Below, in pieces: positions 17,595-56,191 of a stretch of DNA of 64,000 nt. How positions within the stretch are numbered: position 1 is the stretch's first letter; each line of letters begins with the position of its first letter. Both the position numbers and the translations under genes were made by a program. The notes beneath the pieces were generated by a model. The model did no database searches. It was not told where the DNA came from and worked only from the letters and a program-made list of their open reading frames with translations. This stretch comes from Eledone cirrhosa (Eukaryota). Where the stretch lies: the NCBI GenBank assembly GCA_964016885.1, contig OZ024740.1, positions 237,832,001 through 237,896,000 of the forward strand, given 5' to 3'.

Positions 17595-17643
17595 GATTCC
17601 TGATGATTTCTAAAGAATGAAACAGTTCTAGTCCTGTAGAATC
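17595..17643 (+). ncRNA. Type I hammerhead ribozyme in a ~140-bp insert between (TA)n tracts
   Basis: gattc-CTGATGA-tttctaaagaat-GAA ACAG ttctagtc CTGT A-gaatc; GUA triplet. Confidence 0.75.
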
Positions 17644-17726: not shown

Positions 17727-20340
<2,614 letters not shown>

Positions 20341-29732: not shown

Positions 29733-30495
29733 AAAAAAAAATTGTAGCTCTACATGGCTGAATACAATAAACGTAATCTGAGTTTTTCAAATATTAATAA
29801 CATTCGATTCGTTTGCAATTATGCAAGCAAGCCTCATTTTTAAAGCACTGTTCAGAGCTAGTGAAAATATATGCTATTTTCTGAAATATACAGTGACTGA
29901 TCAGCCTGATTTGCATATTAGCTGACTGTCTGATCAGTCAGATCTGCATATTAGCAGATCCACTTTTAGCCAGATTTACATATCAGCAGACTGGCCAGTC
30001 AGTTTCCTGTATAGGAGTGATAAATGGCCGGCGTTGCCAAATTCAAATAAAAAGAAAAAAAAATTTTTCGTCTACATGGCTGAATACAATAAATGTAATC
30101 TGAGTTTTTCGAATATTAATAATAACATTCCATTCGTTTGCAATTAGGCAAGCAAGCCTCATTTTTAAAGCCATGTCAGTAGAACTGGCTGAAAGTGGAT
30201 CTGCTAAGATGCAGATCTGACTGATCAGCCAGTCTGCTAATATGCAAATCAGGCTGATCAGTCACTGTATATTTCAGAAAACAGCATATATTTTCACTAG
30301 CTCTGACAGTTGGCAGGTGAACAGTGAACTGTACTGATGAAGGGTAATACCCAGAAACATTAGTGTCTGCAGTTCTGTTTACATGCCGACATAAGAGCAA
30401 GAATGAAGGGTTCATTCTACTGACATGGATTTAAAAGTGAGGCTTGCTTGCATAACTGCAACCAAATCATTTGAAAAACCCAGATTACATTTATA
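29730..30495. mobile_element. Retrozyme-like family A: more than one unit on the minus strand (HHR segment deleted), then an inverted switch to the plus strand at about 30185
   Basis: 29733-29846 is repeated at 30055-30171; 29853-29975 is the inverse of 30185-30306; flanked by (TA)n. Confidence 0.8.
30326..30375 (+). ncRNA. Canonical type I hammerhead ribozyme (GUC), family A
   Basis: gaactgta-CTGATGA-a ggg taata ccc a-GAA ACA ttag TGT C-tgcagttc; 8-bp stem I, extendable. Confidence 0.88.
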
Positions 30496-36808: not shown

Positions 36809-37502
36809 ATGAATTCTTTTACAATGGAATCAGCTCGAAGGAGGAAAAATACCCCCTGAGCAGTGTATAAATTAATATGTATGTGATGAAACTGCTCCTA
36901 GTTTGAGCTGCAAGCCGCCTCATATATACGACTGTTATTTCTAGCAGTACGGTTATGAGACTAGTTAGATACTGTAAAGCCATGTGCGTCACGCAGTCTT
37001 TTAAATTATTTAGAAGTGAAGCATATCAATTTGTCTCTGGATGTTTACTGAGGAGAGCAGGGCATGATATTCCTACACTTATTTAACTCGAAACATATTT
37101 GGATCTTAAAGTCTAAACTTATCTACGGAACAGGTTTGATTTTGAAATTTAAATGTGTCTAAACATCACGGCCTCTTGGCAATACAGTTCGTCTTCGTTG
37201 ATTTATTATTTTAAATCGATTTGGACAAACTGTAGTATAATAATTAGTATACTTCAATCTGGCTAAATTTTTCTTTTGCAATATATATACAGATGTGTTG
37301 GTATCTGTGTTTCATCACATACATATTAATTTATATATATATATATATGTACGTCAATGTACGTCAATACTCATCTTTTTCCATTTATCTGAGGGTTCTA
37401 AACCCCATTATCAGGCTAAAATTCCTTTAGTCAAAAATACGGTGAAAGCTATATAGTTCCTAGTTTCAAACCTGTTCACTGTTTCAAAACATACTTACTT
37501 GA

Positions 37503-37553
<51 letters not shown>

Positions 37554-37557
<4 letters not shown>

Positions 37558-38232
37558 AATAGAATGAAACGAAATTTCATTTCTCACTCTTAGTACGGCA
37601 CTTACTTAAATGTAAGTATGTATACGTACATACATATATGTATACAGACGTACAGTAGTATGTATATATATATATATACATACATGCACACACATATATA
37701 TATATGCACGTATCGGTTTACCGAACATTTATTATAATGCTCGGTTTGTTTGTAAACAAACAAACAGCCCGAATTACGCCGTACAGTGTTTAGGCAACCA
37801 CGTCACCTTTTTGTTCAACACTGACACAGGAACGATGTACTAGTTTCTAGCTATCGTCAGCATCGTATACCTTCCTTCCAGATGGTTGAACGTCTGAAAG
37901 TATATACTTTCCTTATGCATATTAACGGCTGAGCAGCCTAATTTGCATATCGAGTGAGTTCAGTCGGCCGGGCACACCGAAAACGATAAATGGAATAGAA
38001 TGAAACGAAATTTGTCAGTGTTGAACAAAAAGGTGACGTGGTTGCCTAAACACTGTACGGCGTAATTGGGGCTGTTTGTTTGTTTACAAACAAACAAACC
38101 GAGCATTATAATAAATGTTCGGTAAACCGATACGTGCATGTATATATGTGTGCATGTATGTATATATATATACATACTACTGTACGTCTGTATACATATA
38201 TGTATGTACGTATACATACATATATACTTACA
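37554..38232 (-). mobile_element. Retrozyme-like family B: one 436-nt monomer with 24-nt terminal redundancy and an inverted segment
   Basis: atggaatagaatgaaacgaaattt at 37554-37577 and 37990-38013; 38013-38232 is the inverse of about 37611-37826; (TA)n flanks. Confidence 0.82.
37832..37866 (-). ncRNA. Minimal type I hammerhead ribozyme, family B
   Basis: Minus strand reads acgatg-CTGACGA-tagcta-GAAAC ta GTA-catcgt; palindromic stems II and III. Confidence 0.85.
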
Positions 38233-38267
38233 TATATATATATATATATATTTATTTATTTATATAT

Positions 38268-38836
38268 AAAAAAAAATTTCGTTCTACATGGCTGAATACA
38301 ATAAATATAATCTGTAAACAGTTCTCTTCACATGCCAACACAAGAGTAAGAATGAGGGACTTGTTTGCATAATTGCAAATGAATTGGATATTATTATTGA
38401 TATTCGAAAAACTCAGATTACATTTATTACATTCAGCCATGCAGAGCGAAATTTTTTTTATATATTTAAATGTGGCAAAGTCAGCCATTGATCGCTCGTA
38501 TACAGGAAACTGACTGGCCTATCTGCTGATATGCAAATCTGGCTGATCAGTGGATCTGCTAATATGCAGATCTGACTGATCAGTCAGTCTGCTAATATGC
38601 AAATCAGGCTGATCAGTCACTGTATATTTTAGGAAATATCATATATTTTCACTTACTCTAACAGTTGGCAGGTGAACAGTGAACTGTACTGATGAAGGGT
38701 AATACTCAGAAACATTAGAGTCTGCTATTCTGTGCACATGCCAACACAAGAGCACAAATGAGGGGCTCATTCTACTGACATGGCTTTAAAAATGAAGCTT
38801 GTTTGCATAATTGCAAACAAATCGGATATTATTATT
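38268..38836 (+). mobile_element. Retrozyme-like family A: about 1.25 head-to-tail units with a short 5' inversion
   Basis: 38319-38400 recurs at 38725-38836; HHR copy at 38681-38730; 38268-38314 is the inverse of 38415-38459; three ~33-bp internal repeats at 38521-38620. Confidence 0.82.
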
Positions 38837-51867: not shown

Positions 51868-52439
<572 letters not shown>

Positions 52440-53513
52440 AGATCAAAAGATGGTTAAAGGAGTTCCATATATTTTATTATGCGCATTTCAAAAACAAACA
52501 TCATCAAGCAATAATATTTGTGTTTTCATCAGATAAAACAGGAGAACATGATATGAAGGCTAAAAAACACTTGTTGATAGTGCAGTTTTAAATCAACATA
52601 TGAAAAGTGGTTTTAGATTGATGTGTGATATTGGGAAAAATATTTTATTTAGAGTGGGGGGGGATGAAAAGGGAAGGAGATGAGAGGGAGAGATGGGTGA
52701 TAGAGAGAAAGAGATAGTTTTTATAACTGAGAGGAGATATATTTTTTACATAGAGGGGTTGAAAACCGTTGGAAGATACTGTATAAATTAAAAATTTTGA
52801 AAATTAACGAAGGGAGGATATGTGCGAGGAAAAAATATTTTATTTAGGGAGGGGGGGAGGATGAAAAAAAGGGGGGAGGAGATGAGAGTGAAGGTGGAGA
52901 GGGAGAGATGGGTGATAGAGAGAAAGAGATAGTTTTTATAACTGAGAAAAAGATATATTGTTTTAATATAGAGAGGTTGGGAACCGTTGGAAGATAATGT
53001 ATAAATTAAAGGAATTTGAAAATTAACGAAGGGAAGTTATGTATGAAGATAGAGAGAAAAAAATAATAATTGTGGGTGAATATTCTAACGTCAAAAGAAG
53101 AAATGTATGTATTGTGGCAATTTCAAAATTAGCGAAGAGAAAAGTTGTTATGGTTTGTGTGTAGAAGGATTTGAGAAAAATAATGTGAAGTTAAAGTTTG
53201 TATATTGAATTGATATGTATTAATAATGAGTTCGTTGATGGGGAGAAAAAAATAATAATAAATTAAGGATGAAATTGAGATTAAAAAGATTTATGATAGA
53301 GAGAAAAAATAATAATGATTGCGGATGAATATTCAAAATGTCAAAAACAAATGTTATTATTTTACGAGAAGATAGAATGAGGGTAATGAGTAAACGAGTA
53401 TTATAGAGTGTATAATGCCCTTTAAAGTAAGGTAAGGTAGATGGGTATATTTTAAAGAGGTGTATGTATATGTGCCTTTGAGAAAAGATTCTAAATTGAT
53501 AAAGAATTGAATA

Positions 53514-55901
53514 TTAACTGTATACTTTGTGAAAAGTTCTATGGAATTTATGCAGGCAGATAGAAAACAAATCTGAGCGTCTGTTTATTATAGAATCTAG
53601 GTTAGAGATAATGGTAAATTTTTCATTTAGGCAGAGATTACAGATTTTAGATAGAGAGCTGTTCAAGTATGAGGATGCAGAAGAAATCTTTTTCCAAAAG
53701 ATGTTATATTTAATGTTTTTGTCTTTTAAGGACCATATGAGTTCTGAGAGAGCAGTGTTAGTTCTTTTAAGTTTGTATTTGAAAGATGAATGATGATTAT
53801 AGAGACGAGCTTTAAAAGAGGTGGAAGTGGAGCCAAAATAGGTGAAGGAATTGGTGCTAGTTATAATTTTACATTCATAAATTAAGTTTTTATCGAGGCA
53901 ATGGTTGTTGAGAGGACATTTATTTTTGATGCGGCAGTTGCAATTAGAAAGATTATTAATGAGTGATCTAGTGTTATCTATAGAAGGAATTGGATTGGAG
54001 AAGTTGTTTGCGATAGGAATAATAGGAATAATAGTTTCTTGATTTAGAGTTGGATTGTGAACATTTAGCGAAGTTGTGTTTGACGTTGTATTTGGGTTTT
54101 CAGAAGTTAGCCTAGGGTTTACAATGACATCGGGAGTACTATTACTGTTATTATGAAATTCGATATTGGAAGGAAGAGATTTAGTATTTAATATTTTGTT
54201 GTTGTGTTTAGAGATGATGTTGGAAATATTGGAGGATGTAGAATACGAAAATTTGATGGTGTGTTTGTTAAATATTTTACTATAGATATGTGAGGGAGGG
54301 AAGCATTTATTTAAGGCACTAAAAAATAATTTAGGAATATTGTTATTAATAGAGATGGAGAAAGGAGCATTATACCAGATTATGTTTTTGTATCTAGGTC
54401 TTTTATTAAAATTATTGGAATGGTCATGATTAATTATTCTACTGTAAGTTTTCCTAGAATTTGTTTCTTTATTATATTTGATTTTATCTGGATAGCCGGC
54501 TTTAGAAAGTGCGTTATTATAGTAATTGGCGTTAGCATCAAAGATGTTTTTATTAGAAGATATGTTAGATATTCTATTTCCAATATTATTAACTATAGCA
54601 TTCTTGATATTGGTAGGATGGTTAGATTTAAAGTTAACATAATTAAGATTCTCATTGTTTTTATGGTAAGGGTAATATAGGCCAGTGTCAAGATTAAGAG
54701 ATACATCCAAGAAATTAGCTAGTTTGATACTATTATCAAATTCAATTTTTAGGTTATGTTGGTTAAAGAGATTACGTATATTGTTCTTAATAATATTAAG
54801 TTTAACTATATTGCAATTTAGGATAGTAAAGAGTCCATCGTCACGATAAATTCCACCTCGAAGTTGAGGAATTTTCCGACTCAAAGAGTTCAAAATGAAG
54901 ATACCAATTAAATCAGTCAATTGGGATGAATCGGATGCTCCCATTGTGATGTCGAAGTTGTTAGAGGTATCGGCTCTGGTCCAATATTCGTTGTTGAACT
55001 CTAGGAGGGTTTTACGTGCGGTGAGGATGATGTGAAGTTCATCTGTGGTGATGTCAGAATATTTAAGTGCGAAAGATAGAGCATTATTGAGAAGTGAAGG
55101 CGAAATGGAGGAATAGTAGCTGGCAATATCGAATTGAATAAATTTTAGTTTGTTTTTATTATCCAATTTGTTGAACCAGCCAATCACTTCAGAAGTACCA
55201 AACCATAAATTTAGGTTTAAAGAAGAGCAATTAGAACTAACCTGTGGGATAATCCTATCCAAGATGGCTTTACTAACAACCCCCAGATCAGATTTAGAGG
55301 GGGCGATTAATCTAACAGGTAGTTCAGTGCGAAAATTGTTTTTGTGATCCTTGAGATTTATCCTCGGAGTTCTTGGGAGGAATGGTTCGGTCTTTTTTTC
55401 AATGCCAAGTTTTGACATAATCTCATAGGCTTCAAGGTTTATGCATTCTAAATTTTCATGGTTGGTTTTACGATACTTTTTCCTAAGTTCCTTTAGGATA
55501 AGGTTGTTATAATTATCCTTGGAAATACCATATAGGTTATTGGTTTTGTCAGAGTGGACTAAAACATTTTTTGAGGAATTTAGGTTAGAGATTGTGTTCT
55601 TGAGATTTACAAGGTGCTCTTGTCCTTTGTAAGGGTATCTCTTGAATTTAAGATTTTTTATTATTTTAGTTAATTCTTCCTCGAATTGTGCTAGATTTTT
55701 GTTGGAAGGAGGATTTCGTCTAGAATTAAAAAGATGATCGAGGAAGTTGTGTTCTTTGGTATGAAAGTTCCCTTTTAGGCGCTGGTCATGACCAGCGCCT
55801 AAAAGGGAACTTTCCCTAAAAGGGAACCATCTCTCCCTCTCATCTCCTTCCCTTTTCATCCCCCCCCCTCTCTCTAAATAAAATATTTTTCCCAATATCA
55901 C
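53514..55901 (-). CDS. PLE reverse transcriptase plus GIY-YIG endonuclease; the first ~25 codons come from the inverted pLTR, so the true ORF is 5'-truncated
   Basis: SDKT, QFDIASYYSSI, FDITMGA, IYRDDG, NFLDV; CNCR..CPL..CL, LIYEC..YFGST..FKARLYNH, CNLCLNEK. Confidence 0.92.
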   Translation of the reverse strand: MILGKIFYLERGGGMKREGDERERWFPFRESSLLGAGHDQRLKGNFHTKEHNFLDHLFNSRRNPPSNKNLAQFEEELTKIIKNLKFKRYPYKGQEHLVNLKNTISNLNSSKNVLVHSDKTNNLYGISKDNYNNLILKELRKKYRKTNHENLECINLEAYEIMSKLGIEKKTEPFLPRTPRINLKDHKNNFRTELPVRLIAPSKSDLGVVSKAILDRIIPQVSSNCSSLNLNLWFGTSEVIGWFNKLDNKNKLKFIQFDIASYYSSISPSLLNNALSFALKYSDITTDELHIILTARKTLLEFNNEYWTRADTSNNFDITMGASDSSQLTDLIGIFILNSLSRKIPQLRGGIYRDDGLFTILNCNIVKLNIIKNNIRNLFNQHNLKIEFDNSIKLANFLDVSLNLDTGLYYPYHKNNENLNYVNFKSNHPTNIKNAIVNNIGNRISNISSNKNIFDANANYYNNALSKAGYPDKIKYNKETNSRKTYSRIINHDHSNNFNKRPRYKNIIWYNAPFSISINNNIPKLFFSALNKCFPPSHIYSKIFNKHTIKFSYSTSSNISNIISKHNNKILNTKSLPSNIEFHNNSNSTPDVIVNPRLTSENPNTTSNTTSLNVHNPTLNQETIIPIIPIANNFSNPIPSIDNTRSLINNLSNCNCRIKNKCPLNNHCLDKNLIYECKIITSTNSFTYFGSTSTSFKARLYNHHSSFKYKLKRTNTALSELIWSLKDKNIKYNIFWKKISSASSYLNSSLSKICNLCLNEKFTIISNLDSIINRRSDLFSICLHKFHRTFHKVYS

Positions 55902-55987
55902 ACATCAATCTAAAACCACTTTTCATATGTTGATTTAAAACTGCACTATCAACAAGTGTTTTTTAGCCTTCATATCAAGTTCTCCTG

Positions 55988-56054
55988 TTTTATCTGATGA
56001 AAACACAAATATTATTGCTTGATGATGTTTGTTTTTGAAATGCGCATAATAAAA
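55988..56054 (+). ncRNA. Type I hammerhead in the PLE pLTR; identical inverted copy at 52472-52538 on the ORF-sense minus strand
   Basis: ttttat-CTGATGA-stem II (acaaatattatt/gatgatgtttgt)-GAAA tgcgca TA-ataaaa; palindromic stem III. Confidence 0.85.
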
Positions 56055-56191
56055 TATATGGAACTCCTTTAACCATCTTTTGATCTTATATTATGCATAC
56101 TCCAGTACCACAAACTGTAGAGTGCTTCTTATCCGATATCTGCATTGCTTTATTGTACTACAATAAAACTCACCTCCTACATATATATATA

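Follow-up and report, generated by a model that had tools for sequence, protein, structure and literature searches.

Two-armed insertions of a non-coding hammerhead retrozyme family in (TA)n tracts of Eledone cirrhosa and their Penelope-like footprint

The window copy and its hammerhead motif

The window, i.e. the whole stretch of DNA that was analysed, comprises 64,000 nucleotides of contig 1 (OZ024740.1, positions 237,832,001 to 237,896,000 of the forward strand) in the 2.996-Gb Eledone cirrhosa assembly GCA_964016885.1, which was also the genome searched for relatives. The copy under study consists of two arms placed back to back between two (TA)n tracts, and a coding Penelope-like element in the same window was used as a control. 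Sites A and B in the following list are the two fixed 3' ends of the family.

37502..37553, no strand: (TA)n tract, the target microsatellite, at the 3' (outer) end of the long arm
37554..38013, minus strand: long arm, 460 nt, ending at fixed site B; its 5' end lies 24 nt beyond one unit by chance
37554..37577, minus strand: second copy of a 24-mer, the site-B end of the family
37990..38013, minus strand: first copy of the 24-mer, part of the unit's interior, where the long arm was cut off
37554..37610, minus strand: "tail" of about 60 nt from site A to site B, predicted to fold into a hairpin (in a sister copy, z -2.3), on the long arm only
37610..37709, minus strand: TA/TG/CA microsatellite-like part of the unit, a predicted long hairpin, ending at site A
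37832..37866, minus strand: core of the type I hammerhead, with the predicted cut after 37838; an 8-nt deletion private to this copy, between 37848 and 37847, has removed helix II
37941..37948, minus strand: octamer-like motif, recognised from sequence, about 110 nt upstream of the cleavage site and common to the neighbouring hammerhead family
38013..38232, plus strand: short inverted arm, 5'-truncated, ending at fixed site A and sharing 1 nt with the long arm where the two meet
38233..38251, no strand: (TA)n tract bordering the short arm on its outer side
52437..56170, minus strand: coding Penelope-like element with a 738-aa frame and inverted arms, both ends in (TA)n

The preliminary description of this locus had noted a 24-mer at both ends of 37554-38013, and this repeat was confirmed as exact, with a spacing of 436 nt and a match that ends at letter 24. 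The inverted arm (38013-38225 against 37826-37610) showed 92.8% identity, begins 11 nt past the predicted cleavage site and ends at about 38232-38236 in (TA)n, and (TA)n adjoins both outer ends of the copy, which is an A/B arm pair. Compared with the family majority the window copy differed at 2 of 275 scored columns, in addition to the 8-nt deletion. The octamer-like motif is putatively a promoter element, a role that we assume by analogy to newt satellite 2. A second hammerhead family is located next door (window 38521-38730 and 29795-30370) with three 33-nt repeats, each carrying an octamer-like motif, and the 22-nt stretch that contains the octamer is 91% alike to the studied unit. Elsewhere in the window, at 17823-20315, two 515-nt inverted arms with 97% identity and 1,463 nt between them lie near a hammerhead-like motif at 17600.

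The hammerhead core is located on the minus strand at 37866-37832 with a helix I of 6 bp. The compact form present in the window occurred in none of 100 dinucleotide shuffles of the window, and any type I form with a helix I of at least 6 bp occurred 0.04 times per shuffle. A search of the window with Rfam at E values up to 1 did not find a hammerhead, and the family form gave a weak match to Hammerhead_HH9 (17.6 bits, E 0.062, below the gathering threshold of 52). All aligned family copies carry 8 bases that the window copy lacks, and these build a helix II of 4 bp capped by a 4-nt loop, its basal pair being U-U. Helix I measures 6 bp, and helix III consists of one pair (a 1-2 bp layout) and a palindromic tetraloop. 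The deleted form, as assembled, had one match in the genome compared with 3,563 exact copies of the full 35-nt core, and the deletion was found in 1 of 261 hammerhead-covering segments, a sample biased towards intact cores. The hammerhead had been described as a natural minimal one; the core is real, and its minimal form is this private deletion. By its layout the motif of the family is a type I hammerhead of canonical type and the window form is a damaged copy of it, in which an alternative hairpin is predicted to occupy the core so that the ribozyme, having lost helix II, would misfold. Minimal hammerheads of Penelope-like elements lack helix III and have a helix II of 7-8 bp, according to the available text of Cervera and de la Pena (2014, PMC4209133). 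As far as that text goes, the likeness lies in the type I core and a predicted need for a dimeric fold; the family differs in having the canonical metazoan layout of 6/4/1-2 bp, and the window copy is without helix II through deletion. Cleavage of the family hammerhead as a dimer is plausible from the palindromic helix III and by analogy to axolotl and newt.

In the same sample, with its bias towards intact cores, the ribozyme changes that characterise subfamilies fall on tolerated positions, including a G-U wobble in helix I (74/261), a two-sided change to U-G (10/261), and changes at a free core position and at the cleavage-site base. Divergence was 1.8% in the core vs 6.2%, a difference that was left out of the evidence because many of the loci had been selected by an exact core. 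Contigs from four runs, whose kind is unrecorded, cover the unit in three organisms, mostly with the longer hammerhead, and are silent on expression and circles. A short intron around the ribozyme was considered by eye and rejected, as no matching skip was present among the joints listed in these contigs.

Units, arm ends and pairing in the family

Positions in the unit (M) are numbered on a natural 444-nt family unit (L009:1501-1944) in the phase of the originally described unit, with predicted cleavage after M184. A genome search with the unit gave 2,178 candidates, and among the 40 that were scored there were near-full-length matches at 95-97%; a 24-mer downstream of the core had 6,026 genome matches. 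Units are arranged head-to-tail, and exact matches to one and the same 28-mer read through into a next unit in 1,121 cases and ended in (TA)n in 1,072, so that both the reading across the unit junction and the tandem multimers that had been predicted are found in the genome. The period of 436 nt does not hold for the family, as the natural tandems have units of 442-448 nt (L009), 424-438 nt (an older subfamily) or about 483-491 nt (L252, a third subfamily). Three subfamilies can be told apart: the young one lies on average 2.9% from the majority, another is older and the third has longer units. No sense ORF above 40 aa was found in a natural dimer, and the G+C content is 0.38. The longest array has 48 units in higher-order repeats and a mostly broken core (G000:C1:70055695-70077133; loci L115, L121-L150 and L209); its repeats contain identical units, the first core base is changed in most of them, and the array is still bounded by an inverted A arm.

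Arm ends were determined in a sample that consisted of the first 100 contig 1 matches per pattern together with best-match loci, mapped on a natural four-unit array. Among the position-ordered chromosome-1 loci, 180 of 214 arms ended at one of the two sites (84 at A and 96 at B), with site A at about M405-415 and site B at M28 of the next unit, about 60 nt apart. TA adjoined 155 of these 180 ends, and many of the 34 off-site ends were visibly cut by later events. The 5' ends were spread across the whole unit, and arm lengths fitted an exponential distribution (KS test, p = 0.62, n = 87 arms). Of 96 B arms, 61 were shorter than one unit, seven measured one turn plus at most 40 nt and 28 were longer. 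Given this spread, the terminal redundancy of the window copy is that of any B arm cut off just past one unit, and given that the 3' ends are fixed at two sites while the 5' ends alone vary, "one turn plus 24 nt" reflects where this arm happened to be truncated. The overlap had been read as a signature of a full turn, a reading that does not survive with 7/96 B arms in that length class, and the circular permutation proposed with it applies to the 5' ends only, since the 3' ends stay at A or B.

Back-to-back arms were of opposite type in 39 of 44 classifiable pairs at the position-ordered loci (p = 7×10−8), with five homotypic pairs and 20 further pairs in which one end was off-site; over all loci the count was 59/67. 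The inverted arm of the window copy is the second half of such a Penelope-type two-armed insertion and is unrelated to the cleavage site. Its start 11 nt past that site had been reported correctly, and the offset is a single draw from scattered 5' ends.

The (TA)n tracts flanking loci L001-L211 are nests of many hammerhead- and Penelope-type families, whose ends recur beside those of this family. At several loci (L082:1500-4725, L039, L037, L185, L204 and L012) its arms stand head-to-head with 5'-truncated arms of other TA-targeting families, and at L082 the partner element is coding and RT/GIY-YIG-like, with the free base of the family recurring in its hammerhead-like core. These mixed pairs could be co-insertions that name the driver, or later insertions accompanied by target deletion.

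Evidence on the copied template

Among 99 recovered matches to the downstream motif, 70 arms reached M195 and 69 of them passed the cleavage site. Only one of the 70 stopped between M195 and M175, within 10 nt of the site, compared with about 5.5 expected, and no other sharp run-off or pile-up was seen among the 5' ends of the family, unlike in the control family. This indicated that the template was either a ligated circle or an uncut multimer and that cut linear monomers were not the usual template; the latter were rejected for want of a 5'-end pile-up at the cleavage site. Reassortment of cut monomers was likewise rejected, as linkage was not lost across the cleavage site (mean r2 0.49, vs 0.53 within).

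Neighbouring units nearly always shared subfamily alleles, for example in 87/87 and 44/44 cases at two sites. In a few arrays haplotypes of different subfamilies were mixed (at five sites, 4-10 of 62-110 pairs were discordant), which is unexpected from a single circle. Rare variants were common to neighbouring units of short young arms in 0 of 61 cases, a neutral result. In longer arrays variants were shared by subsets of units, and together with the higher-order repeats of the 48-unit array this shows that DNA-level duplication also builds multimers. Opposite arms shared 31 rare variants where 2.9 were expected, but 14 of these came from one fold-back duplication and eight from one complex locus, and the nine that remained in 40 insertions after removing the two loci are few. 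There was no family-wide excess of A>G editing (85 vs 65, p = 0.33). At one insertion (L163:860-1680; G000:C1:21377529-21378330) both arms share about nine private changes, six of them A>G on the RNA strand, in a motif that genome-wide was present in those two arms alone. This suggests that the two arms were copied from one edited RNA, a single-locus observation for which gene conversion is also a possible cause and which fits a circle or a line.

The lack of a 5' run-off and the shared subfamily alleles favour the circle, and we lean slightly towards a ligated unit-length circle. The template lacked a defined 5' end, and its cleavage junction was intact. In the available text of PMC7229834, circles are shown for coral, mussel and axolotl retrozymes. 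A substantial though less probable alternative is that the same element and enzyme use an uncut linear read-through of dimers or longer arrays, with the ribozyme playing little or no part in copying and the multimers being maintained through DNA-level duplication or template jumps. This would account for the crossing of the cleavage site by 69/99 arms, the arrays of up to 48 units with visible DNA-level duplication, the mixed haplotypes of some arms, and a ribozyme whose helix III is weak and whose helix II has U-U as its basal pair. It is also in line with published in vitro results, insofar as the portions at hand report them: uncut RNA was the dominant substrate of the anole Penelope protein (PMC11167929), and 8/9 Xenopus retrozyme dimers were uncleaved (10.64898/2026.07.22.740005). 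However, the 5' ends show no transcription-start run-off, and daughters of a linear template can only become shorter, yet multimers with matching neighbours recur in at least three subfamilies. Moreover, the variants that mark the 48-unit array are seldom found in other places, and the subfamily changes of the ribozyme fall where they are tolerated.

Proposed mechanism and relation to known elements

The control element (52437-56170) provides the layout of a Penelope-type insertion at close hand. Its 738-aa frame gave a weak BLASTP match (E 2e-5) to a Pfam-confirmed RT/GIY-YIG protein and no Pfam match itself, and the arms of the element are inverted and lie in (TA)n, a tail of 80 nt being present on a single side. 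In its end family all 14 of 14 classifiable pairs, read by eye, were A/B pairs, a count that leaves out one complex locus, one locus cut at its edge and one with both ends off-site, and most arms started at one fixed 5' position. Hammerhead-like motifs are present in the element at 55994 (plus strand) and 52532 (minus strand). Its short relatives begin at one fixed position some 125 nt upstream of where cleavage is predicted, and for two partner arms the start lies no more than 2 nt from the cleavage site.

This layout is that of the Penelope-like elements described in the accessible text of PMC8557442 and PMC11167929. There, an inverted 5'-truncated copy with a tail at one end only is reported by Craig et al. 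(2021, PMC8557442), and two internal RT start sites that define the tail, AT-rich targets and a predicted dimer by Frangieh et al. (2024, PMC11167929); a bias towards (TA)n targets is known from published Penelope-like elements. To the extent covered by these texts, the retrozyme family resembles such elements in 5' truncation, partial tandems, an inverted 5'-truncated arm, a tail at one end, two internal start sites and (TA)n or AT-rich targets, and differs in having no ORF, in a tail of about 60 nt instead of 30-40 and in that the whole element is the repeat unit. Two fixed 3' ends, an inverted 5'-truncated arm and a microsatellite target, as expected of a sequence mobilised by Penelope, are all present in the family, and the attached ORF with RT and GIY-YIG domains that marks an autonomous Penelope-like element was not found.

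By every sequence-level feature the family is a member of the known non-LTR retrozymes. The units of L009 and other arrays (442-448 nt) fall within the described repeat length of 150-450 bp, those of the third subfamily measure 483-491 nt, each carries a type I hammerhead, and coding sequence and LTRs are lacking; arrays are present in the family, and the window copy has a single damaged motif. With metazoan non-LTR retrozymes, as characterised in the available parts of PMC7229834 and 10.64898/2026.07.22.740005, the family shares non-coding tandem units of 150-450 nt with one type I hammerhead each, a G+C content below 50% (38% here), co-occurring Penelope elements, and thousands of copies from partial monomers to long arrays. 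From the same material, the U-U pair at the base of helix II is shared with axolotl HHR_Amex2 and the palindromic tetraloop on helix III with HHR_Amex1. The present family is described at the sequence level; fixed two-site 3' ends, A/B-paired inverted arms and (TA)n targeting are not among the traits described in those parts, and a pLTR homologous to the unit was not found at the 50 GIY-YIG loci compared here. In the accessible main-text literature, mostly outside subscription journals, we found no description of A/B-paired retrozyme arms or of a cephalopod retrozyme.

We consider the two-armed insertion of this high-copy non-coding retrozyme into (TA)n by a Penelope-like RT/GIY-YIG enzyme acting in trans to be the most probable mechanism (probability about 0.8). 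The analysis showed 3' ends that are fixed at A and B next to (TA)n, 5' ends dispersed over the unit, pairing of A with B, tandem read-through, passage through the cleavage site and the lack of an ORF. In the proposed target-primed reverse transcription, the enzyme would nick both strands of a (TA)n tract, one cDNA would begin at A, inside the unit, and its counterpart at B, and the two unfinished cDNA 5' ends would then be joined. ORFs of 636-938 aa with RT plus GIY-YIG are present in the genome, which has 10,596 GIY-YIG candidates. At 50 GIY-YIG loci of these approximately 10,600, no Penelope family with sequence likeness to the unit was seen.

Other explanations of the copy appear much less probable. 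The unit might be what is left of the pseudo-LTR of a coding Penelope-like element, or the 24-mer might be a target site duplication or short LTR, as the preliminary description had allowed for. A resemblance of retrozymes to pLTRs has been reported (Li, Clavereau and Pollet 2026, 10.64898/2026.07.22.740005, as far as its available text extends), and the end pattern is that of Penelope elements, but what stands upstream of a unit is the previous unit (the 1,121 read-throughs), the 99 non-inverted 5' flanks had no upstream sequence in common, and no ORF end ran into the unit in any of 95 flanks searched with 11 Penelope-like ORFs. ORF matches occurred in 15 of these 95 flanks, 12 on the opposite strand and three short ones on the same strand in a low-complexity start, so that no Penelope ORF was attached to the unit in the flanks examined; the 24-mer proved to be internal unit sequence. 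We therefore regard this explanation as improbable. More improbable still is a satellite or fold-back element spread at the DNA level without RNA: duplication is visible in the long arrays and in at least one fold-back, but 3' ends that are fixed where the 5' ends vary, the pairing of A with B and the targeting of (TA)n are marks of retrotransposition, and both arms face outward from a joined 5' junction. Equally hard to sustain is the original reading, which takes the copy for one complete circuit of a circle and a brief overlap, its hammerhead for a natural minimal form and the inversion for one linked to the cleavage site. Its coordinates are correct, and two other loci (L024 and L022) have their 5' end at or near that of the window copy, but 61 B arms are below one turn and 28 longer compared with seven in its length class, the minimal form is unique in the genome, and the cleavage site is avoided rather than favoured by 5' ends.

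The window copy is a damaged product of the retrozyme cycle and hence adds little alone. That Penelope enzymes copy retrozymes from RNA circles has been proposed on the grounds of co-occurrence and repeat similarity. The thousands of young insertions with a Penelope footprint at both ends add support at the level of junctions and name two candidate start sites. Tentatively, one Penelope RT-endonuclease dimer might copy one unit-length circular RNA, with one site A and one site B, starting simultaneously on the two strands of a (TA)n break, and the A/B pairing, the lack of a 5' run-off and the L163 arms would then be the record of this event. We find this doubtful at present; if true, these insertions would constitute a direct assay of how ribozyme RNA circles enter animal genomes.
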